A stretch of DNA of 31,091 bases from Spirochaetales bacterium (GCA_007121695.1 SKKC01000391.1:1-31091); one strand, 5' to 3'; positions 6,089 through 31,091 are shown, numbered from the stretch's first letter. Numbers and translations: made by a program. The notes: generated by a model not told the origin, from the letters alone.

Positions 6089-7396
6089 TTATGGCCGCAC
6101 GCGTTTGCGGTCCCGCGGGAACAGGCTCGCGGCCTTGACGTTTTCAAGACCGAGAATCTTCTGTGTCAGCCGTTCGAGACCTATGGCGAAGCCTCCGTGC
6201 GGTGGGCAGCCATAGCGAAAAATCGAGAGATAGTCACCGAGGTCTTCGGGTTTCATTCCGAACTTCGGCAGTTCGCCCACGAGCATGTCGTAGTCGTGTA
6301 TGCGCTTGCCACCAGTCGTTATTTCCAGACCGCGGAACAGCAGGTCAAAGCTCGCGGTCTGTCGCCCGTCGGGCCAGGTGTAAAACGGCCGTTTCTTGCG
6401 AGGGAACCCGGTTACAAACACCGCCTCGATACCGTGTTCGGCTTCGGCCCAGTCGCAGAGAACCCGCTCGGCTTCCGGGTTCAGGTCAAACAGACGCTTC
6501 CCGGTGCGTTCCGAAGCGATCGCCTTCGCCTCTTCGTAGTCGATTCGCGGCGTCCGAGACAGCGCGTCGGCATCGGGGACGGAGGCTCCGTACTGTTCGA
6601 GAGCGGTTGCCGCCACTCCGTCCTTCACACCGGCGAAAATGTGTTGCAGTATTCCGAGTTCGAGGTCCATCAGGTCGTCGATGCCGTCGATAAACCCCAT
6701 TTCCACGTCGAGGCTCACGTATTCGTTCAGGTGTCGGGGGGTATCGTGTTTCTCCGCCCGGTAGGCCGCGCCTATCTCGAATACCCGCTCGAGGCCGCTT
6801 GCGACCATGGCCTGTTTGTAGAACTGCGGGCTCTGTGCAAGAAACACCCGTTCGCCGAAATAGTCCACCTCGAACAGACCCGTGCCGCCTTCGGTGCCCG
6901 ATCCAATGAGTTTGCTCGTCTTGACTTCGGTAAAATCCTGCGCCCGCAGATACTCTGCAAACAGGCGTACTATTTCGGACTGAAGCTGGAACATCGCGCG
7001 GATCTTCGGCATGCGCAGGCTCAGAATACGATGGTCAAGCAGCGTCTCTATACCGATCCCGTCGGGGTCAGCCGCCACCGGAATGGGAGCATCGAGCGCG
7101 GCAGGCCCGAGCACCTCGGTTTCCTGCGCCCGCACTTCCATGCCTCCAGGAGCCTTCTCGTTGGCTGCAGTGAGTCCCTGTATACGGACGACCGTTTCCG
7201 ACGTGACCGGAGCCGCGCCCTCGTAGACTATCTGTACAAAGCCGCTTCTGTCCCGAAGGACGACGAAGCTGACCTGCCCGAGTTCACGCACCCGGTGCAC
7301 CCAGCCTGCTACCTGTACGACTGCTCCTGCATCCATGTCCGCCACGCGGGCTGCCGCGGTGCGAACCGGTGAGGTCTGTGCATCTGTTTCACCCAT
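6089..7396 (-). CDS. aspS: Aspartyl-tRNA synthetase, short archaeal-type, non-discriminating (Asp/Asn)
   Basis: OB-fold N-terminus (GWVHRVRELG, LRDRSGFVQIV); class II motif 2 YRAEKHDTPRHLNE; motif 3 GGFAIGLERL; 435 aa with no bacterial GAD insertion. His in GWVHR and Pro in KAPGG are the residues associated with non-discriminating enzymes. ATG 7396 overlaps the gatB stop. Confidence 0.95.
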   Translation of the reverse strand: MGETDAQTSPVRTAAARVADMDAGAVVQVAGWVHRVRELGQVSFVVLRDRSGFVQIVYEGAAPVTSETVVRIQGLTAANEKAPGGMEVRAQETEVLGPAALDAPIPVAADPDGIGIETLLDHRILSLRMPKIRAMFQLQSEIVRLFAEYLRAQDFTEVKTSKLIGSGTEGGTGLFEVDYFGERVFLAQSPQFYKQAMVASGLERVFEIGAAYRAEKHDTPRHLNEYVSLDVEMGFIDGIDDLMDLELGILQHIFAGVKDGVAATALEQYGASVPDADALSRTPRIDYEEAKAIASERTGKRLFDLNPEAERVLCDWAEAEHGIEAVFVTGFPRKKRPFYTWPDGRQTASFDLLFRGLEITTGGKRIHDYDMLVGELPKFGMKPEDLGDYLSIFRYGCPPHGGFAIGLERLTQKILGLENVKAASLFPRDRKRVRP

Positions 7397-9785
7397 CTGT
7401 CGTGCTCCCTCTGTGCTCCATTCCGGCAAAGGCCTCGTCTATGTCGTCGCCGCAGACCATCGCAGCAATCAGTCGCGTGTAGGCGCTCTCTGTTGTCAGT
7501 GAGCCCATGGGTACCGCGCCTTCGCGCCACAGCGCATGACCGGTCACATATGACTGAAAGTCAACGACGCCTTCCTGCTGACTGGTGCAGTATATCCGTA
7601 CTCCCCGTCTGCGGGCTTCCTCGAAGGCAGCGCGCAGGCCGAAGGGCGAATGCCCGAGGTTCGCCGTACCGGTATCGTACAGCTCAAGCACGAACGCGGT
7701 AAACCCGGCGTCCATGAGTCGCACGAGGCTCTCGCTCCGCATACCGGGATAGATACGTGCGATGTGAACCTGCTGCATCGCTGCATCGAAACGTTCCGCG
7801 AGTTCTTCGGCGGGGACATCGGGCAGCGAAAACCCGGGCCACTGGTCAGGTCGATGATACTCTTCGTTCCATGTACGGAATCGGGCCGATGCAGTGTCTA
7901 CGCGTTCGAAGCGAAGGTTCACCGCAGGGTACACGCCGTCGGTAAGCGCGACGTGAACCGCGGGTGGCAACTCGATCGCTGCCTGCACCGCGGAGCGCAT
8001 GACCGCGGGAGCCTGTTCCGGCTGTACGGCGGCTGTCAGGACAACAGGCACCGGCGGGTTCGGAAAACACCAGCCGAGAAGCGCTGCTGTATAGGCAAGC
8101 GTATCGGTTCCATGGGACACGACAACTCCGCTCGACGATTCCTCCATTCGCTCCCGGATTGCAGCGACCAGCTGCGCCCAGTCACCGGGTGTAATCTCCT
8201 CGCTCAGAAACCCGCCCAGCGGGATCGCCTCAAAGCGTATGGAATCGGGAAGGTCAGGCTCGGATGCGAGCATGTCCGTCAGATCGCGCAGGGCACCCGC
8301 CTGCACCATGCCGTCGGGGCGTCGCTCGCCGCCGATCGCACCACCAAAGTCGAGTACGTACAGCGGCTCAACCGACAGGGCAGTCTTCAGCGCCTGCTGC
8401 AACGCGCGCGGCTCGGCGCGACCGGCGCTGCGCTTCATGGCCTCGCCGACAAGAAAGCCAAGCGGCCTGGCGTTCCCGGCGCGCACCGCCGACACCGCGT
8501 CCGGGTTGTCAGCGACAACCGCTGCGGCAAGGTCGGCAAGCGCTGCCGGATCGACGATCTGCTCCCATCCCTTTTCCTGAATTATCTCTTCCGGATCTCG
8601 GTCGAGTTCGAATACCGCTTCGAGCGTCTGTTTGGCGATCTTTCCGTGTATGCGGCTGGCCTGCAGAAGCGACAGCAACCGAGCCAGACGCGCCGGCGAA
8701 AGCGGGCTGTCGGCGAGGCTTACCGAATGCCGGTTCAGCAGCTTTCGTACGTCCGAGGTAAGCCAGGTCGCGACGGTACTCGCGTCGGCTCCTTCCTGAA
8801 TCACCGCCTCGAAGAAATCCGCCGTTTCCTTTTCGTCGCACAGGAGCTCGACGACTCTGTCGCCCAGATCGTAGGCCTGCCTGAGCCGTGCCATACGCGC
8901 CTGGGGAAGCTCGACCTGCGACGCTTTCAGCGTGGCGAGAAAGGCTTCGTCTGCCTCGACGACGGGCAGATCGGGTTCCGGGAAGTACCGGTAGTCGTGC
9001 GCGAGTTCCTTCGTCCGCATCGGCTCACTCTGATCCCGGTTCTCGTTCCACAGACGGGTTTCCACGGTGACCGTCCCGCCTCGCTCGAGAATGTCAGTCT
9101 GCCGATCTGTCTCGTACGCGAGCGCCTTGCGCACAAAGCGGGAACTGTTGAGGTTCTTGATCTCCACCTTGTTGCCAAGCGGCGCGCCTTCCGGTGCGAC
9201 GGACACGTTGGCGTCGCAGCGCATGCTGCCTTCCTCCATGTTCCCGTCGCATACACCGAGATAGCGCACCATGCGCCGAAGCTGCATCAGAAGCACTTCG
9301 GCTTCTTCGGCGATCTCGAGATCCGGTTCGGTCACGATTTCGAGCAGCGGCGTTCCCGCGCGGTTGTAGTCGAGCAGGGACATGTCGCCCGCGTGAACCA
9401 TTTTTCCTGCGTCTTCTTCGAGATGGCATTCGCTGATGCGCACTCGCCGGGTCTTTCCATGGAACTCGATATCGAGGTAGCCGTCGGTACCGATCGGCGC
9501 GCCGAACTGGCTTATCTGGTAGTTCTTGGGCAGGTCGGGATAGAAATAGTTCTTTCGCGCGAAGCGGGTATGCGGCGTCGGTGTGCAGTTCAACGCGAGT
9601 GCGACCTGATAGGCCATGCGCATGGCCTCGCCGTTCAGCGACGGAAGCACGCCGGGGTAGCCCATGCAGACCGGGCAGACATTCGTGTTCGGCTCGTCAC
9701 CGAAGGCAGCACGACATCCGCAGAAGATCTTGCTTTCTGTTAACAACTGTATGTGTATTTCAAGTCCGATTCTTGACGCGTACAT
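7389..9785 (-). CDS. gatB: Asp-tRNA(Asn)/Glu-tRNA(Gln) amidotransferase subunit B fused to a C-terminal L-asparaginase/GatD-like domain
   Basis: GatB motifs IGLEIHIQL, RKNYFYPDLPKNYQISQ, LEEDAGK, DYNRAGTPLLEIVTEP, GSMRCDANVS, DYRYFPEPDLP and a Yqey-like tail occupy about aa 1-472. The frame continues without a stop into FGGAIGG...LSEEITP..W...SHGTDTLAYTA...PVVLTA...IYPGM...GAVPMGSLTTESAYTRL (asparaginase fold). 798 aa from ATG 9785 (GAGG upstream). Confidence 0.95.
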   Translation of the reverse strand: MYASRIGLEIHIQLLTESKIFCGCRAAFGDEPNTNVCPVCMGYPGVLPSLNGEAMRMAYQVALALNCTPTPHTRFARKNYFYPDLPKNYQISQFGAPIGTDGYLDIEFHGKTRRVRISECHLEEDAGKMVHAGDMSLLDYNRAGTPLLEIVTEPDLEIAEEAEVLLMQLRRMVRYLGVCDGNMEEGSMRCDANVSVAPEGAPLGNKVEIKNLNSSRFVRKALAYETDRQTDILERGGTVTVETRLWNENRDQSEPMRTKELAHDYRYFPEPDLPVVEADEAFLATLKASQVELPQARMARLRQAYDLGDRVVELLCDEKETADFFEAVIQEGADASTVATWLTSDVRKLLNRHSVSLADSPLSPARLARLLSLLQASRIHGKIAKQTLEAVFELDRDPEEIIQEKGWEQIVDPAALADLAAAVVADNPDAVSAVRAGNARPLGFLVGEAMKRSAGRAEPRALQQALKTALSVEPLYVLDFGGAIGGERRPDGMVQAGALRDLTDMLASEPDLPDSIRFEAIPLGGFLSEEITPGDWAQLVAAIRERMEESSSGVVVSHGTDTLAYTAALLGWCFPNPPVPVVLTAAVQPEQAPAVMRSAVQAAIELPPAVHVALTDGVYPAVNLRFERVDTASARFRTWNEEYHRPDQWPGFSLPDVPAEELAERFDAAMQQVHIARIYPGMRSESLVRLMDAGFTAFVLELYDTGTANLGHSPFGLRAAFEEARRRGVRIYCTSQQEGVVDFQSYVTGHALWREGAVPMGSLTTESAYTRLIAAMVCGDDIDEAFAGMEHRGSTTDG
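7392..8370 (-). other. Asparaginase/glutaminase-like domain at the C-terminus of GatB (about aa 473-798)
   Basis: Both asparaginase signature regions are recognisable: GGAI in place of the consensus GGTI (Ala codon at 8337-8339) and HGTDT (Thr codon at 8106-8108). Confidence 0.88.
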
Positions 9786-9792
9786 AATGCCC

Positions 9793-11232
9793 TCAACTCC
9801 AGACCCGTGGATAGTTCGGCGGGGTCGGCGGTGGAAATACCCCGGCCAGTACCTTCGCAAGCCGTATCAGCCCGAAGTCGCCGCCTTTGGGCCCGGTCAA
9901 CTGCACACCCCCGGGCAAGCCGTCGTACACACCCGTCGGGAGCGCGAGAGCGGGAACGCCGGCGAGGTTGGCGACTGTCGTGTAGCGGTCGGCCTGCTTG
10001 CGCTGATACGGTGTCAGCCCATCGCTTCCCAGCGGAAACGCGAGCGTCGGAAATACCGGCGAAACCAGTACATCTACCCGCGTAAAAAGATCCTGCATAT
10101 CACGGCTGATGCGGGCCCGCAGTCGCTGTGCACGCCCGTAGTACTGATCGTGGAAGCCGCTCCTGAGCACGTAGGTCCCAAGCAGTATGCGCAGTTTCAC
10201 TTCGTCTCCAAGTCCGGTACTCCGCGACAGCCGGACGAGTTCGTCCGGGTTCTCTGCGTACAACGGACGCTCGCCGTAGCGCACTCCGTCGAAACGGGCG
10301 AGATTGGCTCCGGCTTCGGCAGTCGCAATGGTGTAATAGACGGCCGCGGCGTATTCAAGAACGGGCAGGTTTACGCGTTCCGTGTTCGCCCCCTGCGACT
10401 GCAGATACGTTTCAACGTCGCGTACCGCCTGTTGCACGGCAGGGTCGTCGGCCGTATCCGGTGCGAGCACACCCACGGTCAGGGCTTTCAGCCCGGGCGT
10501 CTCGCGCACCTGCATCGAGCGTATGTCTACAGACGTCTGGTCCTTTTCGTCCGACCCCGCGATGACGGAAAAAACAGACTCGAGTCTCTGCGGGGTGTCC
10601 GCGACGACACCGATCGTGTCCAGACTCGACGCGTAGGCGACGAGCCCGAAACGGCTGACAGCCCCGTAGGTCGGCTTCAACCCGTATACACCGCAAAAGG
10701 ACGCGGGCTGTCGAACCGACCCACCGGTATCTGACCCGAGCGCCACCGGTACCATGCCGGACGCCACGGCAGCGGCGGACCCACCGCTTGAACCGCCCGC
10801 TGTTCGCGACAGATCCCATGGGTTTCTGGTCGCAGACAGCGTACTCGTATCGGTGGCGGAACCCATGCCAAACTCATCGAGACTGGTCTTGCCGACAATC
10901 CGGGCACCGGCTTCTTTCAGCTGTGCGACCGCAGTTGCGTCGTAGGGGCTTTCGAACTGTTCAAGCAGTTTCGATCCGCAGGTCAGGCGAAAATCGCGTA
11001 CCGCGATGTTATCCTTGACTGCGACGGGCAGGCCCGCGAGCGGACCCTCGCCGGGATCTTCCGGAGCAGGAGAACGAAACTCCAGAAACGCTTCGAGCTC
11101 TCCGTTTCTCGCGTCGACGGTTGCACCATATTCGCTGACCGTGTCGGCTGTATTCAGGACGGTTTTCCAGTCGGCTTGCACCACGTGCTCCTTTATCTCG
11201 TAACCGGAAGCCCGGATACCGGGCTCGGCCAC
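9793..11232 (-). CDS. gatA: Asp-tRNA(Asn)/Glu-tRNA(Gln) amidotransferase subunit A
   Basis: Amidase signature with intact Ser-cisSer-Lys triad: VAVKDNI, GGSSGGSAAAVA, GSDTGGSVRQPA; also ARFDGVRYG and EVKLRILLGTYVLRSG. Confidence 0.97.
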   Translation of the reverse strand: MAEPGIRASGYEIKEHVVQADWKTVLNTADTVSEYGATVDARNGELEAFLEFRSPAPEDPGEGPLAGLPVAVKDNIAVRDFRLTCGSKLLEQFESPYDATAVAQLKEAGARIVGKTSLDEFGMGSATDTSTLSATRNPWDLSRTAGGSSGGSAAAVASGMVPVALGSDTGGSVRQPASFCGVYGLKPTYGAVSRFGLVAYASSLDTIGVVADTPQRLESVFSVIAGSDEKDQTSVDIRSMQVRETPGLKALTVGVLAPDTADDPAVQQAVRDVETYLQSQGANTERVNLPVLEYAAAVYYTIATAEAGANLARFDGVRYGERPLYAENPDELVRLSRSTGLGDEVKLRILLGTYVLRSGFHDQYYGRAQRLRARISRDMQDLFTRVDVLVSPVFPTLAFPLGSDGLTPYQRKQADRYTTVANLAGVPALALPTGVYDGLPGGVQLTGPKGGDFGLIRLAKVLAGVFPPPTPPNYPRVWS

Positions 11233-11253: not shown

Positions 11254-11532
11254 TCAGAGTACATTCGGAATGACAATGTAGCGGTCCTCTATCTCGGGAC
11301 CACGATCAATGAGGGCGTCGGCGTCACAAAAGCGGCTCAACACATCGTCCCGGAGGGCCGTGACGGGGCGAACAGGTACGTCTGCTTCGGCCCCGGAATC
11401 GATGTCGGCATCGGCCATGAGGTCGAAATACTGAAGCATGCGCTTCACTTCGTCCGCAAAGCGTGTCTGTTCTTCGTCCGAGAGATCGAGTTTGGCCAGT
11501 GCTGCGGTTATGGAAAGTTCCGTGTCACCCAC
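11254..11532 (-). CDS. gatC: Amidotransferase subunit C
   Basis: 92 aa; ALAKLDLSDEE...LRDD...YIVIPNVL pattern; lies directly upstream of gatA. Confidence 0.9.
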   Translation of the reverse strand: MGDTELSITAALAKLDLSDEEQTRFADEVKRMLQYFDLMADADIDSGAEADVPVRPVTALRDDVLSRFCDADALIDRGPEIEDRYIVIPNVL

Positions 11533-11693: not shown

Positions 11694-13115
11694 GTGACAA
11701 AAAGAGAGTTCCCGACCATACATTTTTACGATCAGGATTTTGTCGACCTGTATAATCAGACCTGGACCTGGATGGATGATTTCCAGAAGAAAGGGACCAC
11801 ACGGAATAAACTGCAGCCGAAGTATCTGAACTATCCTTCGTCCGAGACGGTCAATCAGTTCGACGCGTGCTTTTCCACCTTTTATCTGGTGTATTCGAAC
11901 CGCATCTACTCGGCGGCCGCGCAGCTGGACAACTTCTACGGCCGCCAGGAAAAAGACGGTGCAATTCGAGGGGAGTACTCGCTGAAAGACGGAAAACCGG
12001 TTACTACGCGAGATAACCCGGAATGCGTGCACCCACCGCTGTTCGCGTGGGCCGAGTACAACCTGTACCACAAGATAGGAAACAAGAAGCGAATCAAGGA
12101 AATCATGCCCATACTCGAAGCGTATTTCGAGTGGCTCGAGGCGACCTTCAAACAGGAAAATGGCCTGTACGCGGCACCGCTTCACGCGACGACCATGACC
12201 AACTCGCCACGGAAAAAATCGAAATATCCTGTCGACTTCAACGCCCAGCAGGCCATAAACGCGCTGTACATGTCCGAACTCGGCGACATCCTGAACGATA
12301 AGGACATCAGCTTTAAATACAAGCGTCATTATTTCAGTCTGAAAACCCGCATCAACTCGCTCATGTGGAACGACGACGCGGGATTCTACTTTGATCTCGA
12401 CAGCAAGGAAGAGCAGGTACAGGTAAAGACCATCGCAGGCTTCTGGCCGCTGCTGGGCGAGATACCGAACGAAGCGAAGAGCGACCCGCTTATCCGCCAC
12501 GTGCGCGACCCGGAAACATTCGGAACCGAAAACCCCTTCCCCACCGTTGCGGCGAACGAACCGGATTTTGACGAAAACGGAACCGGTTACAAGGGTTCGG
12601 TCTATCCTCCCTTTACATTCATGGTAATCAAGGGACTGGAAAAGTACGGGCAGTTCGAACTTGCCCGGGAATGCGCGATCAGACACCTGTATTACATTCT
12701 CGATACGCTTCACCCCGAGGGGAAGGACAAGGGCAACGTCTGGGAGGCCTACCTGCCTCGCAAGGATGGTCCGTCGAAATGGAGAGGCAAGGCGGGCTTT
12801 CCCCGCCCCATGTTCCTGACCTACACCGCTCTTTCTTCCGTGGCGCTCATGATAGAGAACGTGATCGGACTGTATATCAGCCTGCCGCGCAAGACGGTCG
12901 ACTGGATCATTCCCACGCTTGAAATCATGGGCATAGAGAATCTCTCGCTCAAGCGGAACCTCGTCACCATTCTCAGCAACAAGACTTCACGCGGCTGGGA
13001 GATTCGTCTCGAGAGCGAGAAGCTCTATTACTTCACCATCGACATCCTGCGGCACAAGAAGAAAACACTGCCCATTCCCTCGGGCAAGTGCTCCATGCTT
13101 ATCGACAAGCTCTAA
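11694..13115 (+). CDS. GH63/MGH1-like (trehalase-like) (alpha/alpha)6-barrel glycoside hydrolase family protein
   Basis: NQFDACF, HPPLFAWAEY, TNSPR, LMWNDDAGFYFD, KTIAGFWPLL, YKGSVYPPFTFMVIKGLEKYG, VWEAYLP motifs typical of GH63/GH37-clan barrels. Confidence 0.75.
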   Translation: MTKREFPTIHFYDQDFVDLYNQTWTWMDDFQKKGTTRNKLQPKYLNYPSSETVNQFDACFSTFYLVYSNRIYSAAAQLDNFYGRQEKDGAIRGEYSLKDGKPVTTRDNPECVHPPLFAWAEYNLYHKIGNKKRIKEIMPILEAYFEWLEATFKQENGLYAAPLHATTMTNSPRKKSKYPVDFNAQQAINALYMSELGDILNDKDISFKYKRHYFSLKTRINSLMWNDDAGFYFDLDSKEEQVQVKTIAGFWPLLGEIPNEAKSDPLIRHVRDPETFGTENPFPTVAANEPDFDENGTGYKGSVYPPFTFMVIKGLEKYGQFELARECAIRHLYYILDTLHPEGKDKGNVWEAYLPRKDGPSKWRGKAGFPRPMFLTYTALSSVALMIENVIGLYISLPRKTVDWIIPTLEIMGIENLSLKRNLVTILSNKTSRGWEIRLESEKLYYFTIDILRHKKKTLPIPSGKCSMLIDKL

Positions 13116-13813
13116 GCGTCAGACTCGCCTTCGGCGGCCCGGGCCTTCGCGCGTTTCTTTATCGCGGCTCCTAAAAGCGTAATGCGCTTTCCGGGTGCCA
13201 CACCGGTCGGACAGACCCGTGAACAGCTGAAGTTTTTGGTGCAGCGCTCCACCCCGCGAGCGTCTGCGGCGAGATCGAGCCACCTGTCGGCCTCGTGGGG
13301 AGATTTTTCGACCATGCGGTGTATCGAAGCGAGCGCTGCCGGTCCCATCCAGTCCTCGGTCACGGGACAGCTGGTCACGCACAGCCCGCACTCGATGCAG
13401 TTTTCGAAGCGCTCGTAGTGCTCCATGCCCTCGGGAACTGCAGCGTCGGTGTTCACGTCGCTCACCCGGGTGTAGGTAATGTCGTCCGGAAACTCGTTAA
13501 AGAACTCCGCCGGATCGAAGGCTAAGTCACCGATCTGATGCATGGTCGGCAGCGGCTCGATACGCACCGGCTGATCCTCGGGAATGTCGGCGAGGCGCTT
13601 GATGCACGCGAGCACGAACTCCCCGTTCACCGCCACACCACAGGTGCCACAGGACCCGTGATGGCATGACTGCCGGAACATGAGATCCGGTTCTTCCTGA
13701 AGCCGGATGTATTCGAGTGCGTCTATGATCGTCGTCCGTTCGTTGTACGGCACCGTAAATTCGCTGACCTTCTGTGTGGCCGTCCGGTACACTGCAACCG
13801 TTCGTTCATTCAT
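13112..13813 (-). CDS. Succinate dehydrogenase/fumarate reductase iron-sulfur subunit-like protein (SdhB/FrdB family)
   Basis: [2Fe-2S] motif SCHHGSCGTCG...LAC; CIECGLCVTSCP; CTKNFSCSRVCP; family motifs TIIDALEYI, IEPL, MGPAAL. Confidence 0.9.
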   Translation of the reverse strand: MNERTVAVYRTATQKVSEFTVPYNERTTIIDALEYIRLQEEPDLMFRQSCHHGSCGTCGVAVNGEFVLACIKRLADIPEDQPVRIEPLPTMHQIGDLAFDPAEFFNEFPDDITYTRVSDVNTDAAVPEGMEHYERFENCIECGLCVTSCPVTEDWMGPAALASIHRMVEKSPHEADRWLDLAADARGVERCTKNFSCSRVCPTGVAPGKRITLLGAAIKKRAKARAAEGESDA

Positions 13814-15006
13814 ACGAGTACTCCCTGGCGAAAAAAGTGACGGTAGTTCGGAAGAGGTTCACTGGCGGTCCGGCAGGGTGTATCCACGTCGAACAGGTCG
13901 CATACAACGTCAACCGTCTTTTCACCCATGGCTCTGAGCGTCGTTGCCTTACCTCCGGTCAGGCTCAGCATGCCTTCGACGTTGTCGAGCTTCGCGTGAT
14001 CGCGAACGTCGAAGTCCCGACTGAGTTCCCGCCCCTCCTCTTCGGTCGACGACGCTCCAGCCAGAGGACGAACAGCAGCCCACGCCTTGTGATACGCAGT
14101 CTCCTTGAAGTCCGGCACCATCTCGATTGCTGCCTTCGTGAGAAACTCGACGTCGGCGTCGGGCACCGTACAGTCGTCCGGGTCGTCGGTCTGCCACTGC
14201 GTCGATCCGATAATGGACAGTCCTCGCTGCGGAACCAGAATGTCGCCGTCACTCGCAGGCCGCAGCCGCTCGATTATGTTGTTTACGAGCCGCCCCTGAT
14301 GCGCGAGCATGGTGCCGGGGGCCGGAGTAATCGGCAGCTCTATGTCGGCCATGGCGGCGAGTCGACCGGCCCAGCCGCCTGTCGCGTTGATCACCAGATC
14401 GCATTTCACCGTTTCGTCGGCGCCGGTACGAAGGTCGTGTACCGTCACCCCAGCGATCCTGCGGCCCTCGAATACGAGCGACTCCACCCGCGTAAAGTTG
14501 CGAATAACGGCGCCGAGTTTCCGCGCTCCTGCGAAAAAGTGCATGGGCAGACGGTACGCGTCGAGGGTTCCGTCCGGCACCATTACGCCGCCGAGAAGTC
14601 CGGGATTCAAACGGGGTTCCATGGCGAGAACCTGCTCGGAGGTCAGCCACTGCGCGGGTATGTCTGCTTCAGCGCAGGCCTGTTCGAAGGTTTCGCGGAA
14701 CGCCAGCTCTTCTTCGTCAAAGGCGACGAATATACCGCGATTCGCTTCTATGGCTTCGGGAGCAATGCGCGTGAGAATACGCACCTCGTCCATGCATTCC
14801 CTGCCGACTTCCCGGTCCTTCACTACGTAGCGGGCTCCGGAGTGCAGAAGCCCGTGATGGCGGCCCGTCGAGCCACAGGTCAGTTCGCCGCGCTCGAACA
14901 GCGTTGCCTTGAATCCGCGTTGTACAAGATCGTAGAGGATTGCAGCGCCGGTGCCCCCGCCGCCCACAACGACCACGTGCGTATCTGATGCATTGCTCAT
15001 ACGCAT
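13810..15006 (-). CDS. FAD-dependent glycerol-3-phosphate dehydrogenase subunit A-like flavoprotein (short form without the C-terminal Fe-S domain)
   Basis: VVVGGGGTG Rossmann motif; GSTGRHHGLLHSGARY..KD.E..RECM.E closely resembles the anaerobic GlpA motif; also DGTLDAYRL, LTGGKATTLRAMGEKTVD. Ends at 398 aa. Start could be 15006 or 15000. Confidence 0.85.
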   Translation of the reverse strand: MRMSNASDTHVVVVGGGGTGAAILYDLVQRGFKATLFERGELTCGSTGRHHGLLHSGARYVVKDREVGRECMDEVRILTRIAPEAIEANRGIFVAFDEEELAFRETFEQACAEADIPAQWLTSEQVLAMEPRLNPGLLGGVMVPDGTLDAYRLPMHFFAGARKLGAVIRNFTRVESLVFEGRRIAGVTVHDLRTGADETVKCDLVINATGGWAGRLAAMADIELPITPAPGTMLAHQGRLVNNIIERLRPASDGDILVPQRGLSIIGSTQWQTDDPDDCTVPDADVEFLTKAAIEMVPDFKETAYHKAWAAVRPLAGASSTEEEGRELSRDFDVRDHAKLDNVEGMLSLTGGKATTLRAMGEKTVDVVCDLFDVDTPCRTASEPLPNYRHFFRQGVLV

Positions 15007-15061
15007 TGTGCGCGTAGAAAGGATTCCTTGCGCGTCGTTGTTGTGTTTTCCACCGTCTGTC

Positions 15062-15089
15062 AGGCTATCAGATTGACTGTTTTTGTCAA
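15062..15089 (-). promoter_or_regulatory. sigma70 promoter of the glpA-like/sdhB-like pair with a perfect inverted repeat over the -35
   Basis: Minus strand TTGACA-N16-TAGCCT with extended -10 TG; palindrome TTGAC-N7-GTCAA at 15073-15089. Confidence 0.55.
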
Positions 15090-15850
15090 GAATGCGACGC
15101 GACGAACCAGTCTATCAGATACCGGGCCACACTCGATCGCGGGGGAATGTCGGGCAGCTCGTCCGGCCGACACCAGAAGGCATGGTCGATTTCAACGCCA
15201 TCCACCTGAATTTCGCCTGCCTGGTAGTCGCACACGAATGCGATCATGAGGCTGTCGGGGAATGGCCAGGGCTGACTGCGCATGTAGCGGATGTTCCCGA
15301 CGGTGATTCCCGTTTCTTCGGCGACCTCACGCGCTACGCACTCCTCGAGCGTTTCACCAGGTTCGACAAATCCGGCGATTACGCTGTAGTAGCGGGATGC
15401 GCGACGCGAGTTATGGGCGAGCAGCAGTCGGCCGTCGCGAACAACCGCCACGATTACGGCCGGAGAAATGCGCGGATACACCACCGATCCGCATGTGGGA
15501 CAGCGGCGTGCCACCTCCTCCCCGACACGCACCGTCTCCGTACCACAGCAGCCGCAGTAGCGGTGGGTTCGGTCCCAGTGCGCCAGGTGCACACCCCGGG
15601 CAGCGCAGCGAAAGTCCGCTTCCGGTACGCTCCGCATGAGCTCGCGCAGCGTGTGGCAGTCGTAGCCCTCGGGCACCTGCTGTTCCGCAGGTGCGGACAG
15701 CAGACCCATCCTGGCCCCCGACGAGCACAGCCCCAGATCAACCGCTGAGGCTGCATCCAGACCGAGGCTGTTCAGGTCGGTTTGTGCGAGCAATACCCGG
15801 CCCTCCCGGGATATCAGTTTATCTTCTACACGTACGATGTACACCTGCAC
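15086..15850 (-). CDS. nudC: NAD(+) diphosphatase (NADH pyrophosphatase)
   Basis: Zinc finger RYCGCCG...RRCPTCG..YPRISPAVI, Nudix box AGFVEPGETLEECVAREVAEETG, SQPWPFPDS. Start set at GTG 15850 (254 aa, the usual NudC size); the ORF-track start overlaps the divergent gene. ATG 15907 is an alternative. Confidence 0.93.
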   Translation of the reverse strand: MQVYIVRVEDKLISREGRVLLAQTDLNSLGLDAASAVDLGLCSSGARMGLLSAPAEQQVPEGYDCHTLRELMRSVPEADFRCAARGVHLAHWDRTHRYCGCCGTETVRVGEEVARRCPTCGSVVYPRISPAVIVAVVRDGRLLLAHNSRRASRYYSVIAGFVEPGETLEECVAREVAEETGITVGNIRYMRSQPWPFPDSLMIAFVCDYQAGEIQVDGVEIDHAFWCRPDELPDIPPRSSVARYLIDWFVASHS

Positions 15851-15856
15851 GCCAGC

Positions 15857-15886
15857 ATTGTAGTGCTCACGGGTCCTGTCCGCCAG
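15857..15886 (-). promoter_or_regulatory. Candidate promoter giving a leaderless nudC transcript
   Basis: Minus strand CTGGCG-N18-TACAAT followed by 6 nt and the GTG start. Confidence 0.45.
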
Positions 15887-15895
15887 GGGGGAAAC

Positions 15896-15924
15896 TTGAC
15901 ACTGCATATGACGCTCCATAGACT
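15896..15924 (+). promoter_or_regulatory. Near-consensus sigma70 promoter of the HD-GYP gene
   Basis: TTGACA (15896-15901)-N17-TAGACT (15919-15924). Confidence 0.7.
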
Positions 15925-15941
15925 TGATTACAGAACAGCAT

Positions 15942-17186
15942 ATGACGTCTTCCGAACAGAAACTCCGTGATATTCTACAGCTCGACGCGGAACTCAATCG
16001 TATACAGGACGTCGACATCCTGCTCGAGCGTATTCTCTCCGAAGCGCGCAGGGTTTCAAGTGCCGACGCCGGAAGCATTTACGTCCGGCGCGAAGACGAG
16101 CTTCTGATCAGCTACGCGCAGAACGACACGCATCAGGCCAAGCTGCCACCGGGGCATAAACTCATTTACAATGTCTTTACCGTCCCGATAAGCCGCAAGA
16201 CCATCAGCGGCTACTGTGCGGCGACGGGAGAACAGGTAAACATTCCAGATGTATACGAGATTCCGGACGAGGCTCCGTACGGCTTCGACCCGTCCTACGA
16301 CCGGATCAGCAAGTACCGCTCCAAGTCCATGCTCGCCATTCCGCTCCGCGACCAGAACGGCACGATACTCGGCGTAATCCAGCTTATAAACAAGAAGAAC
16401 CCCGACGGTTCTGTCGGGGAGTTCGATGCAGATGACGAACTCATTACCATGCATTTCGCCACAAACGCGACGGTCGCGCTGCAACGGGCACAAATGACCC
16501 GCGCCATAATCCTTCGCATGATCCGCATGGCAGAGCTGCGCGATCCGAAGGAAACCGGGCCCCACGTAAACCGGGTGGCGGGCTATTCGGTGGAAATCTA
16601 TGAGCGCTGGGCGCAGAAAAAAGGCTACGATCAGGCGCAGATAGACCGGGCGCGTGACAACCTTCGAATGGCGGCCATGCTCCACGACGTGGGAAAAGTG
16701 GCCATCTCCGATGCCATTCTCAAGAAACCGGCGAAGTTCACCGACGAAGAGTTCAACATCATGAAGACCCACACCTGGATGGGCGCACGGCTCTTCGCCG
16801 ACAGGCAGTCGGAGTTCGACGACATCGCCGCAGAGGTCGCGATCAGTCATCACGAAAGCTGGGACGGTACGGGCTATCCCGGGAAGATCGATGTCAATAC
16901 TGGCGAACCCTACGAGACGGACGACAGCGGGCGTCCCGTAGGGTTCAGAGAAGACGAGATTCCGATCTACGGGAGAATCGTATCGATTGCGGACGTGTAC
17001 GATGCGCTCAGTTCGCGCAGGGTCTACAAACAGGCCTGGTCCGAGGACGATGTCATAGACGAGATCAAAAAACTCAGCGGAATAAAGTTCGACCCGGACG
17101 TCGTTGAGTGTTTTCTCGAAGTACTGCCGAACATCCGGCAGATTACGGAAAAATACAAGGACCCCGAACCACCAGCAGGCGAATGA
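15942..17186 (+). CDS. GAF + HD-GYP domain protein (predicted c-di-GMP phosphodiesterase)
   Basis: N-terminal GAF (SADAGSIY, YRSKSMLAIPL, GVIQLINK); ETGPHVNRV, MLHDVGK, HHESWDGTGYP, IADVYDAL..RRVYK. ATG 15942 chosen because TTG 15924 lies within the -10 box. Confidence 0.93.
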   Translation: MTSSEQKLRDILQLDAELNRIQDVDILLERILSEARRVSSADAGSIYVRREDELLISYAQNDTHQAKLPPGHKLIYNVFTVPISRKTISGYCAATGEQVNIPDVYEIPDEAPYGFDPSYDRISKYRSKSMLAIPLRDQNGTILGVIQLINKKNPDGSVGEFDADDELITMHFATNATVALQRAQMTRAIILRMIRMAELRDPKETGPHVNRVAGYSVEIYERWAQKKGYDQAQIDRARDNLRMAAMLHDVGKVAISDAILKKPAKFTDEEFNIMKTHTWMGARLFADRQSEFDDIAAEVAISHHESWDGTGYPGKIDVNTGEPYETDDSGRPVGFREDEIPIYGRIVSIADVYDALSSRRVYKQAWSEDDVIDEIKKLSGIKFDPDVVECFLEVLPNIRQITEKYKDPEPPAGE

Positions 17187-18645: not shown

Positions 18646-18924
18646 CTACTTCCTGAACTTCTTGAGCATGCGGTGCGTCACGAGAAAACCGCCAACGACG
18701 TTGGTCGTCGCGAACACGAGCGCGGTCACACCAAGCACGGCCGCAAGCGGCCCGCTTCCGGATCCGCTCGCCACTATCGCCCCTACGAGCGTTATACCGG
18801 ATATCGCGTTCGATCCGGACATGAGCGGGGTATGCAGAATGGGCGGTACCTTGGTAATTACTTCAAACCCGACAAATACAGCCAGGGCGAAAATGGTCAA
18901 TATCATTACAAAACTGGTGTCCAT
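18646..18924 (-). CDS. pntAB: NAD(P) transhydrogenase subunit alpha, part 2 (membrane)
   Basis: KVPPILHTPLMSGSNAISGI, NVVGGFLVTHRML. Confidence 0.95.
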   Translation of the reverse strand: MDTSFVMILTIFALAVFVGFEVITKVPPILHTPLMSGSNAISGITLVGAIVASGSGSGPLAAVLGVTALVFATTNVVGGFLVTHRMLKKFRK

Positions 18925-18931
18925 GCTGTTT

Positions 18932-20074
18932 CTACTCCTTTTCGTATGCAGCCTTCAGAAACTGACCGCGGATTTCGCCATCGTGAATGACCAGCGTGGA
19001 ATCGGTGATCTCGTCTTCCAGGTCGACAGTCAACTCACCCTCGCGCACGATGTTCTGCAGGAAGGTAACCATGTTCTTGCTGTACAGCTGCGAGGCGCTT
19101 CCGGCCATCTCCGACACGAGATTCAGCGGGCCGATAATTGTCACGCCGTGCGCAACGACCGTTTCTCCCGGTTTCGTCAGCTCGCAGTTCCCTCCCCGTT
19201 CGGCGCCGAGGTCGACAATGACGGAGTTCGGCTGCATGCCGGCTACCATTTCGGCGGTGACAAGTCGTGGGGCAGGTTTACCGGGTACGGCTGCCGTTGT
19301 AATGACAACATCACTTTCGGCGAGTACGGTTTTCATCATCTCCCGCTGCTTTTCATAAAACGTCTCGTCCATTTCCTTCGCGTAGCCACCAGAGCCTTCC
19401 GCGCTGTCGCCAAGGTCCAGTTCCACGAACTTCGCCCCGAGGCTTTCTGCCTGTTCCTTCGCGGCGCTGCGAACATCGTAGGCGCTGACCACCGCCCCGA
19501 GACGCTGTGCCGTCGCAATGGCCTGCAGCCCCGCGACCCCCACGCCGACGATAAACACTTTCGCCGGAACTATGGTTCCGGCTGCGGTCATCATCATCGG
19601 GAACATTTTCGGCAAGGTGGTCGCCGCGGTCAGAACCGCCTGATACCCCGCGAGGTTTGCCATGGACGACAGGACGTCCATGCTCTGCGCGCGGGTTATG
19701 CGTGGAACAAGCTCGAGCGAAAACAGGGATGCCTTTCCCTGGACCATTGTGTCGAAGGATTCGTGTTTCCGGTACGGGTCCGCCATGCCGACCCAGATCT
19801 GTCCTGCATGACCAACTTCGGCAGCAGCACCACCGTCCGCCGAGGCGGCACATCTGACGCTTGCAATGACATTGCTTTCTGCGACAATGGCTGCCCGGTC
19901 GCCACGGACCGCGCCTTTTTCCTCGTACTCGCTGTCGGCGTAACCCGCCGCCGCACCCGCACCTGTTTCAAACCGCACTTCACAGCCGATTTTCTGCAGC
20001 AGGGAGACATGCGCCGGGACAATGGCAACACGTTTCTCGCCGGGTGCTGTTTCTTTAAGCACACCTACAATCAT
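18932..20074 (-). CDS. pntAA: NAD(P) transhydrogenase subunit alpha, part 1 (NAD-binding domain I)
   Basis: GEKRVAIVP, RITRAQSMDVLSSMANLAGY, FPMMMTAAGT, GVGVAGLQAIATA, GGYAKEM, GGNCELT. Confidence 0.96.
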   Translation of the reverse strand: MIVGVLKETAPGEKRVAIVPAHVSLLQKIGCEVRFETGAGAAAGYADSEYEEKGAVRGDRAAIVAESNVIASVRCAASADGGAAAEVGHAGQIWVGMADPYRKHESFDTMVQGKASLFSLELVPRITRAQSMDVLSSMANLAGYQAVLTAATTLPKMFPMMMTAAGTIVPAKVFIVGVGVAGLQAIATAQRLGAVVSAYDVRSAAKEQAESLGAKFVELDLGDSAEGSGGYAKEMDETFYEKQREMMKTVLAESDVVITTAAVPGKPAPRLVTAEMVAGMQPNSVIVDLGAERGGNCELTKPGETVVAHGVTIIGPLNLVSEMAGSASQLYSKNMVTFLQNIVREGELTVDLEDEITDSTLVIHDGEIRGQFLKAAYEKE

Positions 20075-20162
20075 GATGAGATACTCCTTTTGGGTTCAGT
20101 CGTGAACGTGGAGAGTCTAACAGGTTATCGATCAAGAAACCATGCTCTGATCCACACCCTCA

Positions 20163-21662
20163 CTATTTTTCGTGATGCAGGATCAAATCTGAGACGATTT
20201 TGCCACCGGAAACAACCAGGGGCATGCCCCCGCCGGGGTGGCAGCTTCCGCCGCAGAAATACAGCCCGTGATACCGTTTCGAACGGTTGGGATGCCGGAG
20301 AAAGGCAGCCGTTCTGCTGTTCGATGAGATGCCATAGAGCGATCCGCGGTAGCTGCTTGTGCGCTCGGCAATGTCAGCGGGCGTCATGACCGCTTCGGTC
20401 TCGATATGTTTCTCTACGTCGACGCCGATTCGCGAAGAAATCGTTGCCAGCGCAGTTTTGCGGACACGCTCGGCCTCTGCAGACCAGTCCTGACCATTAT
20501 CGTACGGCGCGTTTACAAGCACAAACCAGTTCTCGCCGTGATCGGGTGCGTCGGCAGGCGACGACTTGGAGGTAATGTTCACGTATACGGTCGGATCGTC
20601 CGGGCAGACGCCTTCTTCGAAGATCTGCCTGAACTCGCTGCGGTAGTCCCGGGAGAAGAAAATATTGTGATGCGAGAGCTCCGGACACTCGCGGCCAACG
20701 CCCCAGTAGAATACGAGTGCCGACGAGCTCGGCTCAAGCGACTCGTACCTCAGGAGTTCGGGCGCATCGGGCTCTGAAAGAAGATCGCGATACGCGATGG
20801 TGACGTCGGCGTTACAGACGACTGCCTGCGCGGGTACGTGAGCCCCGTTCACGCTGACCCCGGTTACCCTGCGACGACGTTTGTCCTGACGCCAGGTTAT
20901 CTGTTCCACCCGCTCGCCACGGTGTATGTGAACGCCAAGTTCGCGGGCAAGCTGTTCCAGCGCCCGCGGAATCGCGTGTATACCGCCTTCCACGGCGTAC
21001 GCACCGCCCCGGTATTCGACGTGCGGAATAATGTTCAGGGTTGCCGGGGTCTGAAAAGGGTCCGATCCGTTATAGGTCGCGTAGCGCTCGAACAGTTGCC
21101 GGGCGTGGGGCGTTTCGAAGTGGCGTTCTACCGACTGCGCCATGGTCCGCAGCGGGTCAATGCCGGGCAGACGGAGCAGAGACGCAAGAAAACCGAAGCG
21201 TACATAGGACGATGCTTCATGCAGGCTCCGGTTCAGAAACATATCCGCGGCAATGGAATAAATGCGACTGGAATAGTCGAGAAATCGCTTGAGGTTCGCC
21301 GGATTCTCGCCCGCCCGTTCGTGTAACTCCCGTGCAAACCGTTCCTCGTCGGCCCAGGCGCTCAGAGAAACGCCGTCGGGGTAGAAGTACCGGCAGACCT
21401 CCGGGAGCGGGATCAGCGTGACGTAGTCTGCCAGATCACGGCCTGCCACACGAAACAGATCCTCGAACACCCCCGGCATGGTTACCAGAGACGGTCCGGT
21501 ATCGAAACGATACCCGTCGCGTGTCATAGTGCCGGCCTTACCGCCGACGTAGTCCGATCCGTCGTATACAGCCACCTGCCAGCCCCGTGCAGCGAGTCGG
21601 ATCGCCGCCGAGAGTCCGCCAAGTCCTGCGCCAATAACTACAGCTACACGTTTATCGTTCAT
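20163..21662 (-). CDS. Phytoene desaturase family carotenoid dehydrogenase (CrtI/CrtD-like)
   Basis: VIGAGLGGLSAAIRLA, GYRFDTGPSLVTMP, ATYNGSDPF..PA, PSSSALVFYWG, HHNIFFS, DPTVYVNI, GGSCHPGGGMPLV. Confidence 0.88.
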   Translation of the reverse strand: MNDKRVAVVIGAGLGGLSAAIRLAARGWQVAVYDGSDYVGGKAGTMTRDGYRFDTGPSLVTMPGVFEDLFRVAGRDLADYVTLIPLPEVCRYFYPDGVSLSAWADEERFARELHERAGENPANLKRFLDYSSRIYSIAADMFLNRSLHEASSYVRFGFLASLLRLPGIDPLRTMAQSVERHFETPHARQLFERYATYNGSDPFQTPATLNIIPHVEYRGGAYAVEGGIHAIPRALEQLARELGVHIHRGERVEQITWRQDKRRRRVTGVSVNGAHVPAQAVVCNADVTIAYRDLLSEPDAPELLRYESLEPSSSALVFYWGVGRECPELSHHNIFFSRDYRSEFRQIFEEGVCPDDPTVYVNITSKSSPADAPDHGENWFVLVNAPYDNGQDWSAEAERVRKTALATISSRIGVDVEKHIETEAVMTPADIAERTSSYRGSLYGISSNSRTAAFLRHPNRSKRYHGLYFCGGSCHPGGGMPLVVSGGKIVSDLILHHEK

Positions 21663-24131: not shown

Positions 24132-24824
24132 TTAGAACAGTTCGTATTGTCTGATCTCGCGGATTTGCACTGTCACCCGAACCGTCGCGGTGTATTGCTC
24201 ACGCCGGATCGCCAGCACCGGAGGTTGCGAGAGAAGGACGTCGGCCACGATTTCGGCTGGACGATTCGGAGTTTCACGACGGGCCTGCACCAGAACGGCC
24301 CGGACAATCGCGTCCCGTATCGCGTCCTGCATGCCTTCGGGACCCGAGAAATAGTGCGCGCGTCCTGTCGCCGACGATCGAGCGACACTCGACACCAGGA
24401 ACTGCTCCCGCGATACTCGCTGTTCGTTATCCGGCGTGAAAAGGAAGACTCCATACACCCGCCCCTCCGACTCACGGACCTCACGTGTACGCAGTCCGGG
24501 GTGACCGGCCGCAATGACCGATCGCAACTCGACCTCGGATCGTTCGACAACCCCCCGAGCCGGTTCGGCAGGAACGACTCGCACGCTGACGCCGTAGGTC
24601 ATGGCGCTGAAGACAAACCTGGCGGTGTCGAGAAGCCTCAGGACCCCACCCTCGGCGCTCCACGGCTCGCGTTCCCGTTCCGACAGAAATGGTTCGAGCT
24701 CCGCCCACAGTTCGGCCTGAAGGAGCATGTCCGTCGCACCGATCTGTGGCGCATGCGAGAATAAAAGGAGACACACAGTCACGAGTACGGATAGCCGGTA
24801 CTTCACATGTACAGATATCGGCAC
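24132..24824 (-). CDS. Hypothetical exported protein
   Basis: 230-aa ORF filling the gap between rhomboid and SDR; N-terminal KYR plus hydrophobic stretch suggests a signal peptide; no motif recognised. Confidence 0.65.
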   Translation of the reverse strand: MPISVHVKYRLSVLVTVCLLLFSHAPQIGATDMLLQAELWAELEPFLSEREREPWSAEGGVLRLLDTARFVFSAMTYGVSVRVVPAEPARGVVERSEVELRSVIAAGHPGLRTREVRESEGRVYGVFLFTPDNEQRVSREQFLVSSVARSSATGRAHYFSGPEGMQDAIRDAIVRAVLVQARRETPNRPAEIVADVLLSQPPVLAIRREQYTATVRVTVQIREIRQYELF

Positions 24825-29814: not shown

Positions 29815-31091
29815 TTACGGGCGTGGTTCGCCGGTGTACAGATACGTACGCTTGGCTATCCATGTGCTGTTCCACCAGTTTTTCAACCACCTCATGACGT
29901 AATGATCAAGACCAAGACCACGTCCGGCACCACCAAGAAGTACGAAGGATGCCGTCATGTACCAGTACAGTTCAACGTTCCCCCATCCGGATACAATGAA
30001 GAATCCACACATTCCTATTGATGCTGCGGCCGAAAGGAAGGTAAACAGTCCGACGATCAGACATACTCCGATTACGACCTGCGCAATTACGGCTCCCGCC
30101 TGGGCTCCGTACGCGACTATGGGGTGTATGCTGAGGAAGGTCTCTGCAAACCACTCGTAGATCCCTATCGGCTCACTCAGAATCGATGTCTGCCATACTC
30201 CGGTGCGCCCCATACCACCAGGCGTTGCACTCGTTGCGGCACTGATTTCGTCGGTAAGGCCTGGAAGAAATATGTTGTTCGGCGACGGCCTGAGAATACC
30301 GTCGGGTCCGGGGTTAAGCCACCCGGTAGAGACCTTGTACAGCCCTTCTGTCAACCACTTGATTCCAAGGAATACACGAACGGGCAGAGCCCAGTAGACC
30401 GGAATCTTGTACGAAAAGTGCTCGCGGGTGATCGTTCGGCCATTCTTGACGTCCAGGAACTGGCCCCGAATATACTCCCACACCGCGTTTACTCCGGCAA
30501 CGCCGAACAGGTAGTGCAGGTTAATGAGGTGCTTCACGCCCAGTGCCAGGAAGCCACTCATACTCATGCCACCGACGTGCGCCACACCGACCTTGCTTCC
30601 AAGAGACACCATGTGACCATGGTAGTTGCTCTTGAAGGGCTTCATGGGCTTTCGCTCCATGTCGGCAATAATGTTGTGCGACGCGGTATGCGCGGTCTGC
30701 AGGGCCGTTTCAACGATCTGCGGCAGCACCGTGTCGTTCTCGACAAACCAGATCATGTCTCCGACCATGAAGACATTCTCGTAGTCCACGCTCTGCATGA
30801 ACTCGTTGACCTTGATGCGTCCACGCTGGCCTGCAATACACATATCGTCGTCGTCGAAATGACACCCCGCCATGCCGTGGATGCCTTCGGGGGACGCCTG
30901 CACTGCACCAGCACTCGGCGATACCGAACCCTTGGTCAGCTCGATTTTCGACGTGAACTCGGAACCGTGTACGCCGGCTGTCCAGATAAAGGTCTCTGTC
31001 CTGATAGGGTCCTGGCCTTCCAGCTCTACGACACCAGGCTTTGCACCGGTAATCTTCGTGCTCAGCATGAAGTCACATCCGTTCTTCTCGA
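29815..31091 (-). CDS. Type II NADH dehydrogenase family flavoprotein fused to a C-terminal DoxX-like membrane domain; 5' end beyond the window
   Basis: The frame is open to the window edge (EKNGCDFMLSTKIT...); FIWTAGV, GRIKVNEFM, VFMVGD, PQIVETALQTA, YHGHMVSLG, KHLINLHYLF; then RVFLGIKWLTEGLYK...GRGLGLDHYVMRWL (DoxX-type). Confidence 0.88.
   Translation of the reverse strand, partial: EKNGCDFMLSTKITGAKPGVVELEGQDPIRTETFIWTAGVHGSEFTSKIELTKGSVSPSAGAVQASPEGIHGMAGCHFDDDDMCIAGQRGRIKVNEFMQSVDYENVFMVGDMIWFVENDTVLPQIVETALQTAHTASHNIIADMERKPMKPFKSNYHGHMVSLGSKVGVAHVGGMSMSGFLALGVKHLINLHYLFGVAGVNAVWEYIRGQFLDVKNGRTITREHFSYKIPVYWALPVRVFLGIKWLTEGLYKVSTGWLNPGPDGILRPSPNNIFLPGLTDEISAATSATPGGMGRTGVWQTSILSEPIGIYEWFAETFLSIHPIVAYGAQAGAVIAQVVIGVCLIVGLFTFLSAAASIGMCGFFIVSGWGNVELYWYMTASFVLLGGAGRGLGLDHYVMRWLKNWWNSTWIAKRTYLYTGEPRP

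Follow-up and report, generated by a model that had tools for sequence, protein, structure and literature searches.

The window analyzed here is a 31,091-nucleotide stretch from a soda-lake spirochaete (Spirochaetales bacterium, GCA_007121695.1 SKKC01000391.1:1-31091), whose genome is a fragmented metagenome-assembled genome (MAG; 447 contigs, 76% complete). Positions 7389-9785 on the minus strand encode a 798-residue protein (P0002) that joins GatB, a component of the tRNA-dependent amidation enzyme GatCAB, to an asparaginase-like domain. The C-terminal 329 residues are most likely a pseudo-enzyme with the type I asparaginase fold, fixed to the tail of a working GatB. GatCAB, with an amidase, and GatDE, with an asparaginase, are the textbook pair of solutions to tRNA-dependent amidation. 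A bacterial GatCAB in this organism carries an asparaginase fold that appears to be retained for a non-chemical purpose.

A complete GatB continues into an asparaginase fold

The frame at 7389-9785 is open on the minus strand alone; the plus-strand reading contains many in-frame stops and was ruled out. The likely start is the ATG at 9785, which has GGAG 11 nt upstream and lies right after the gatA stop. The gene and its parts are as follows.

7389..9785, minus strand: gatB fused to an asparaginase-like domain, 798 aa plus stop, an open frame with four Pfam domains
8937..9770, minus strand: GatB_N catalytic (cradle) domain, residues 6-283 (Pfam E 1e-112; Foldseek matches to GatB chains)
8376..8819, minus strand: GatB YqeY-like tRNA-binding tail, residues 323-470 (Pfam GatB_Yqey E 4e-39)
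8343..8393, minus strand: in-frame junction, residues 465-481, without a linker of variable length
7923..8360, minus strand: asparaginase N-terminal lobe, residues 476-621 (PF00710 E 4e-22, 79 bits, cut-off 22.5)
7434..7772, minus strand: asparaginase C-terminal lobe, residues 672-784, with motifs ELYDTGTA and TSQQEG (PF17763 E 2e-12, 47.6 bits, cut-off 34.6)

All four Pfam domains exceed their curated cut-offs, and the NCBIfam GatB equivalogs match residues 2-471 (NF004012, 597 bits, cut-off 338; TIGR00133, 520 bits, cut-off 315). A Foldseek search with the fusion returned 3ip4_B with a target TM-score of 0.79. Target TM-scores of 0.75-0.80 to type I asparaginases indicate that the two-lobed asparaginase fold is present, and phmmer matched the N-terminal lobe to 5ot0, 1zq1 and 2d6f. 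The domain begins 3 residues past the end of the YqeY tail, and the junction DNA contains zero stops and zero ATG codons. An initial annotation, made from the window sequence alone, had placed the gene at these coordinates and described a complete GatB that continues in frame into an asparaginase domain with no ATG at the junction. The analysis bears out each of these points, with the gene on the minus strand, and the residue numbers given for the motifs are correct (G481-G482-A483-I484, S528-E529-E530 and H558-G559-T560-D561-T562). The fusion is the sole GatB_N match in a profile search of its own 76% complete genome.

The fusion is real and conserved

The fusion was confirmed as real and conserved. 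Its source is a fragmented MAG, a circumstance that favors an artefact of assembly or frameshifting that joined two separate genes. This explanation has a negligible probability and is refuted by independent contigs from four metagenome runs in three studies, which bridge the junction with 0 gaps, and by more than 100 independent homologues with an identical in-frame junction of fixed length. The runs came from one salt lake (2012), two soda lake or alkali sediments (2019) and one lake water (2025). The indel for which the initial annotation had advised a check is absent from the contigs of all four. Among high-scoring matches of 320-370 aa, none was a stand-alone member of the fused-domain family; each of these matches begins within the YqeY tail or with the GGAI motif and is therefore a fragment, and the candidate stand-alone genes were rejected.

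A search for the architecture had been proposed to map its distribution. A word-indexed search found the same four Pfam domains in more than 120 protein clusters of ~794-826 aa which, where named, belong to Spirochaetaceae, Spirochaetales or Alkalispirochaeta. An exhaustive HMMER scan returned 34 representatives at E < 1e-30, followed by a steep fall to ordinary asparaginases. In 100 of 105 relatives, the GRAEP motif in the tail and GGAI are 26 residues apart. The domain is conserved to the level of the YqeY tail (median identity 50%), and the C lobe is the best conserved part (60% median). A variant strain shows that the domain is under purifying selection, with 26 of 31 listed substitutions inside the domain falling at third codon positions (manual count).

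Loss of the catalytic residues

Residue counts are from 105 relatives, and the stand-alone comparison is with the 107 relatives listed. Four elements of the active site were located.

8337..8339, minus strand: codon GCG for Ala483 at the nucleophilic Thr position (GGTI to GGAI), read from the DNA
8196..8204, minus strand: S528-E529-E530, the substrate-binding Ser region (S528 and E529 invariant, 105/105; E530 in 104/105)
8100..8114, minus strand: HGTDT, residues 558-562, with the second Thr and the Asp kept (G559, T560, D561 and T562 invariant, 105/105)
7902..7919, minus strand: N623-L-R-F626-E-R628 in place of the canonical GTRVRK, with the triad Lys lost

Position 483 is Ala in 101/105 relatives, Ser in 3/105 and Arg in 1/105. 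The stand-alone relatives have Thr at the nucleophile position in 98 of 107 cases (85 as GGTI, 13 in another Thr form), with a gap or no Thr in the other 9, and most of them keep the triad Lys. Ala483 is fixed even though GCG is one transition away from a Thr codon, which argues for selection and not chance.

Profile-profile alignment with hhalign against 100-odd stand-alone relatives sets G-T-R-V-R-K over P-L-N-L-K-F and places the triad Lys on F626; MAFFT agrees. Pairwise phmmer puts the Lys on R628 instead, and the profile-profile register is preferred. N623 is invariant, position 626 is Phe in 102/105 relatives and position 627 is Glu in 102/105. The initial annotation had asked whether the Thr-to-Ala change and the missing triad Lys are conserved; both extend across the family. 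The accompanying statement that the triad segment has no Lys is correct for P0002, in which residues 610-640 contain zero Lys, but does not extend to the family, where position 625 is Lys in 81/105 members and position 628 in 15/105. The retention of HGTDT and of the substrate-binding Ser region, also noted at the outset, is invariant in the family. The domain scores below the curated cut-offs for both GatD (NF003217, 114 versus 310 bits) and asnASE_I (TIGR00519, 107 versus 260 bits). The residue pattern gives good support to the view that the domain is a catalytically dead pseudo-enzyme. The fusions P0151, P0154 and P0157 form a deep sister clade with the motifs GGAI, SEN and HGLDT, in which the second Thr is also gone. 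Some divergent members of the family carry GGTI.

The gat operon and the asparagine pathway

The fusion is the third gene of an operon with the order gatC, gatA, gatB::domain, aspS. The other three genes are listed below.

11254..11532, minus strand: gatC, 92 aa, first gene of the operon (Pfam GatC E 3.6e-7, 30.7 bits, cut-off 23)
9793..11232, minus strand: gatA, a 479-aa open reading frame (ORF), amidase with an intact Ser-cisSer-Lys triad (Pfam Amidase E 6e-125)
6089..7396, minus strand: aspS, archaeal-type non-discriminating aspartyl-tRNA synthetase (AspRS), ~435 aa (NF003483, 'aspartate--tRNA(Asn) ligase', 507 bits, cut-off 353)

Alignment to solved GatA structures (3h0l_A and 3kfu_E) shows that the GatA triad motifs AVKDNI, GGSSGGS and GSDTGGSVRQPA are intact, as had been claimed. 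Together with the GatB equivalog score, the intact triad marks the enzyme as the genuine bacterial GatCAB that was first proposed. The aspS equivalog score likewise agrees with the earlier assignment of the adjoining gene as a non-discriminating AspRS. GatA scores 472 bits against TIGR00132, slightly below the cut-off of 481; its first ~60 residues lie outside the model, and the GTG start may be overcalled. The likely aspS ATG at 7396 overlaps the gatB stop (ATGGGTGA, 7389-7396) and has a GGGAG Shine-Dalgarno sequence 8 nt upstream, an arrangement that suggests translational coupling. A longer aspS ORF that starts at a TTG and reaches 7429 is probably overcalled.

The four-gene order recurs at six other loci (L004, L006, L008, L011, L015 and L061). 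The flanks are syntenic between window positions 11694-16078 and L004:740-3845, from a distant relative; in each, the gat operon is adjoined by genes for an MGH1-like glycoside hydrolase and a NUDIX/NADH pyrophosphatase. L004 also has a response-regulator gene immediately before gatC.

The genome encodes asparaginyl-tRNA synthetase (AsnRS, 588 bits) and glutaminyl-tRNA synthetase (GlnRS, 519 bits). AsnA was not found in this 76% complete genome, and Asn_synthase gave only a 25-bit match. Two complete genomes of the same order have the same pattern, with AsnRS and GlnRS present and asparagine synthetase undetected. GatCAB looks dedicated to asparagine synthesis because both synthetases are present and asparagine synthetase was not found, and the tRNA-dependent route appears to be the sole asparagine route in this organism. 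The indirect route is the only source of asparagine in Thermus/Deinococcus (PMC2330236).

Relationship to GatD and type I asparaginases

A FastTree phylogeny of 135 domains places the fused domains in one clade with a support of 100 and a long stem. This clade falls outside the clade of 13 GatD-length sequences in a tree with weak deep nodes. The alignment to the GatD model begins at model position 103, and the GatD N-terminal domain (~90-100 aa) is absent. A strict GatD origin was therefore rejected as unsupported by the tree and the model scores. The domain had initially been called GatD-like, a term that does not hold in the strict sense; 'asparaginase-fold' is accurate and 'GatD-like' applies only loosely.

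Archaeal GatD (GatDE; PDB 1zq1 and 2d6f) resembles the fused domain in being an asparaginase fold tied to a GatB/GatE-type kinase, with detectable similarity (E ~1e-22), and in being a homodimer, the state predicted for the domain. GatD differs as a separate subunit, whereas the domain is fused, lacks the N-terminal domain, the nucleophile Thr and the triad Lys, and has as its partner a bacterial GatB with its own GatA. The type I L-asparaginases (Thermococcus kodakarensis 5ot0, Pyrococcus 1wls/4q0m and Escherichia coli AnsA 2p2d) have the two lobes, HGTDT, SE and the C-lobe motifs in common with the domain, and they form dimers whose active site lies at the interface, as is predicted for the domain. 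The domain departs from them in the replacement of GGTI by GGAI and of the triad Lys by Phe, in its low TIGR00519 score and in never standing alone. The bacterial GatCAB enzymes of the Thermus thermophilus and Pseudomonas aeruginosa asparagine transamidosomes (PDB 3kfu and 4wj3) have the same GatB_N and YqeY tail, gatC-gatA-gatB order and intact GatA. They also have a co-encoded non-discriminating AspRS, known here from the genes; unlike them, GatB here has the extra asparaginase-fold domain after the tail. The presence of AsnRS and GlnRS with no asparagine synthetase detected is a feature shared with Thermus/Deinococcus.

A predicted homodimer and a proposed role

AlphaFold2 (AF2) models fold both halves of the fusion well (predicted local distance difference test scores of 81 and 86). 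The domain was predicted to form a homodimer with an ipSAE interface score of 0.86 in 3/3 runs, and the best control scored 0.02. The ipSAE mark is reached by 20/30 known homodimers and 1/23 monomers. The relic active site (SEE, TDT and F626-E627) is part of the predicted interface, as are the C-lobe motifs ELYDTGTA and SQQEG. Residues conserved at ≥90% make up 28 of 56 interface positions compared to 60 of 273 elsewhere (22%; odds ratio 3.55, p 5e-5, uncorrected for burial). The hypothesis that the domain self-associates gains support from the homodimer prediction and the interface conservation. The GGAI loop lies outside the predicted interface and yet is nearly invariant, an argument that the pocket has itself been maintained. 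Asparaginases with a Thr-to-Ala mutation are the standard Asn traps among PDB structures, as the entry titles of two Foldseek matches (7c8x and 5dnc) indicate.

The best explanation, which we hold with moderate confidence, is that the domain has no catalytic role and acts as a dimerising module, which joins two GatCAB enzymes in a pair and has a pocket that possibly binds a ligand. Ammonia would come from GatA and none from the domain. For the pairing, the fit to AspRS and the binding of a ligand, we infer the following scheme. The domain is predicted to keep the intimate asparaginase-type homodimer, and two GatCAB trimers would therefore be tied tail to tail in a (GatCAB)2 particle. This particle would echo the archaeal GatD2-GatE2 tetramer and, with its two-fold symmetry, would suit the non-discriminating AspRS of the adjoining gene, which is a dimer. 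GatD is a homodimer that holds two GatE (PMC2330236). The relic active-site pocket would sit in the dimer interface. The residues that hold the amino acid are retained there while both chemistry residues are replaced, and the pocket may therefore bind Asn or Asp without turnover.

Several observations weigh against the dimerising module. The dimer prediction may echo the model's memory of solved asparaginase dimers, and the interface conservation could in part reflect burial. The predicted template modeling (pTM) scores of the AF2 models are low (0.55 for the full length and 0.65 for residues 296-798), which leaves a rigid tail-to-domain arrangement unsupported and the orientation of the two halves to each other unfixed. 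AsnA and AsnB may lie in the missing part of the 76% complete genome. Degenerate fusions persist in treponemes that lack gatCA or aspS, which implies that the domain has some value independent of the transamidosome.

Alternative roles

The domain could instead act mainly as an allosteric sensor, a role that is possible but doubtful. The dead pocket would bind free Asn (or Asp, Gln or Glu) and relay its state through the YqeY tail. An occupied pocket would reduce transamidation or the binding of tRNA at times when AsnRS can charge tRNA(Asn) directly with imported Asn. Such a function is compatible with dimerisation and fits the invariance of the ligand-holding residues with the chemistry residues replaced, the fixation of Ala483 without drift, the Asn held by Thr-to-Ala mutants in solved structures and the fixed-length junction to the tRNA-binding tail. 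Feedback would also pay in an organism that has AsnRS and the tRNA-dependent Asn route with no asparagine synthetase detected. However, the Lys-to-Phe replacement may reshape the pocket, the sister clade lacks T560 too, and blocking GatCAB alone would let mischarged Asp-tRNA(Asn) build up unless AspRS is also controlled. An equally tentative form of this proposal makes the dead pocket a natural substrate trap for free Asn, in which Asn at the dimer interface would shift the tRNA-binding tails and shut the tRNA-dependent asparagine pathway.

Residual catalysis is improbable. The domain would be an amidohydrolase that uses another nucleophile, for example T560, and would serve GatB as GatD serves GatE, with Asn as a second source of ammonia. 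An asparaginase does supply the ammonia in GatDE (PMC2330236), HGTDT and SEE are invariant, Ser occupies position 483 in a few relatives and GGTI is found in some divergent members. These points are opposed by the family-wide replacement of both the nucleophile Thr and the triad Lys with non-functional residues, and by the intact, co-encoded GatA. The GatB tail is mobile in GatCAB structures, and the domain that it bears would hang there and not beside the GatB kinase pocket. A very improbable role for the pocket is to hold the aminoacyl end of Asp-tRNA(Asn) or Asn-tRNA(Asn) for channelling, product protection or hand-off. The domain is joined to the tRNA-binding tail, and degenerate copies of tail plus domain survive without gatCA, a hint that the role is tied to tRNA and does not depend on amidation. 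The YqeY tail of GatCAB, however, binds the tRNA elbow, distant from the 3' end, and the residues around S528 that hold a free alpha-carboxylate are conserved whereas an esterified aminoacyl group has none.

In Thermus, a symmetric transamidosome requires additional tRNAs and another AspRS dimer. Dimerisation of GatCAB by the domain, if it occurs, would provide a protein-only route to a symmetric transamidosome with an archaeal-type AspRS. Sensing of Asn, if true, would give the indirect pathway its first known metabolic control and would make this enzyme the first GatCAB or transamidosome under allosteric feedback, with an asparaginase recycled into a receptor. It would address how amide aminoacyl-tRNA formation is tied to cellular needs for amide amino acids, a question that a 2008 review leaves open (PMC2330236).

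Distribution of working and decayed forms

Literature searches found no paper on a GatB::asparaginase-domain fusion and no described GatB with an appended asparaginase-fold domain. The initial annotation knew of no described system with this architecture; this stands for the literature searched but not for the databases, where the architecture is already common in public Spirochaetia sequences labelled 'GatB' or 'asparaginase domain-containing protein'. An even set of 401 genomes of the phylum, representing 153 genera, was used to sample its distribution. The domain occurs in 13/401 genomes and 10/153 genera, all within one class. The working form is present in 3 of the 13 (the genome of the window, G332 and G380). 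The other 10 have a decayed GatB core (90-137 bits versus ~380; 30-42% identity), and usually also a canonical unfused GatB; some have AsnB. Named decayed members come from Treponema and Breznakiella and have no gatCA or aspS neighbors.

These orphans, annotated as 'asparaginase domain-containing protein', share the four-domain architecture and are nested in the same domain clade. They differ from the window gene, by sequence the working form, in the decay of the GatB core, the missing gatC, gatA and aspS neighbors and the frequent presence of a canonical GatB elsewhere. Orphan decayed fusions are found at loci L009, L010, L012-L014, L016, L017 and L020 and in genomes G305, G317, G323, G329, G338, G347, G353 and G359. 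Some orphan fusions kept or regained GGTI (Treponema phagedenis, P0136). The working fusion, the form that also lacks the second Thr and the orphan fusions with decayed GatB make an evolutionary series, and the family offers a clean natural case of an enzyme that became a pseudo-enzyme.

In the sister-clade operon, a gene upstream of gatC (L006:2276-4243, also in L007) encodes a 655-aa protein (P0285) and overlaps the gatC start. Its asparaginase motifs are in swapped order, with HGTDT near residue 183 and GGTI near residue 307, and Pfam profile positions 78-180 match first. The N-terminal region of P0285 has no Pfam match, and a 252-aa gene (P0286) precedes it. P0285 may act as an asparaginase partner of the fused domain, which in the sister clade is doubly dead.

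A MAG labelled Alphaproteobacteria contains a gatA-fusion-aspS operon (L061:4494-7069) in which the fusion is split over three frames, probably by long-read indel errors. The L061 GatB is nearer that of the window than that of the sister clade, and the taxonomic label is doubtful. The only other PF00710 match in the genome of the window (G000, contig C291; L001:1471-1971, minus strand) is a 166-aa protein with the asparaginase N-terminal lobe alone, in which GGT and HGTDT are intact.

Other ORFs in the window

Four sizeable ORFs in the window have no Pfam match: 16059-16853 (minus), 18662-20386 (plus), 24135-24824 (minus) and 29818-31068 (minus). The ORF at 18662-20386 overlaps a 380-aa minus-strand ORF that adjoins pntB, and this minus-strand ORF may be the real gene (pntA).

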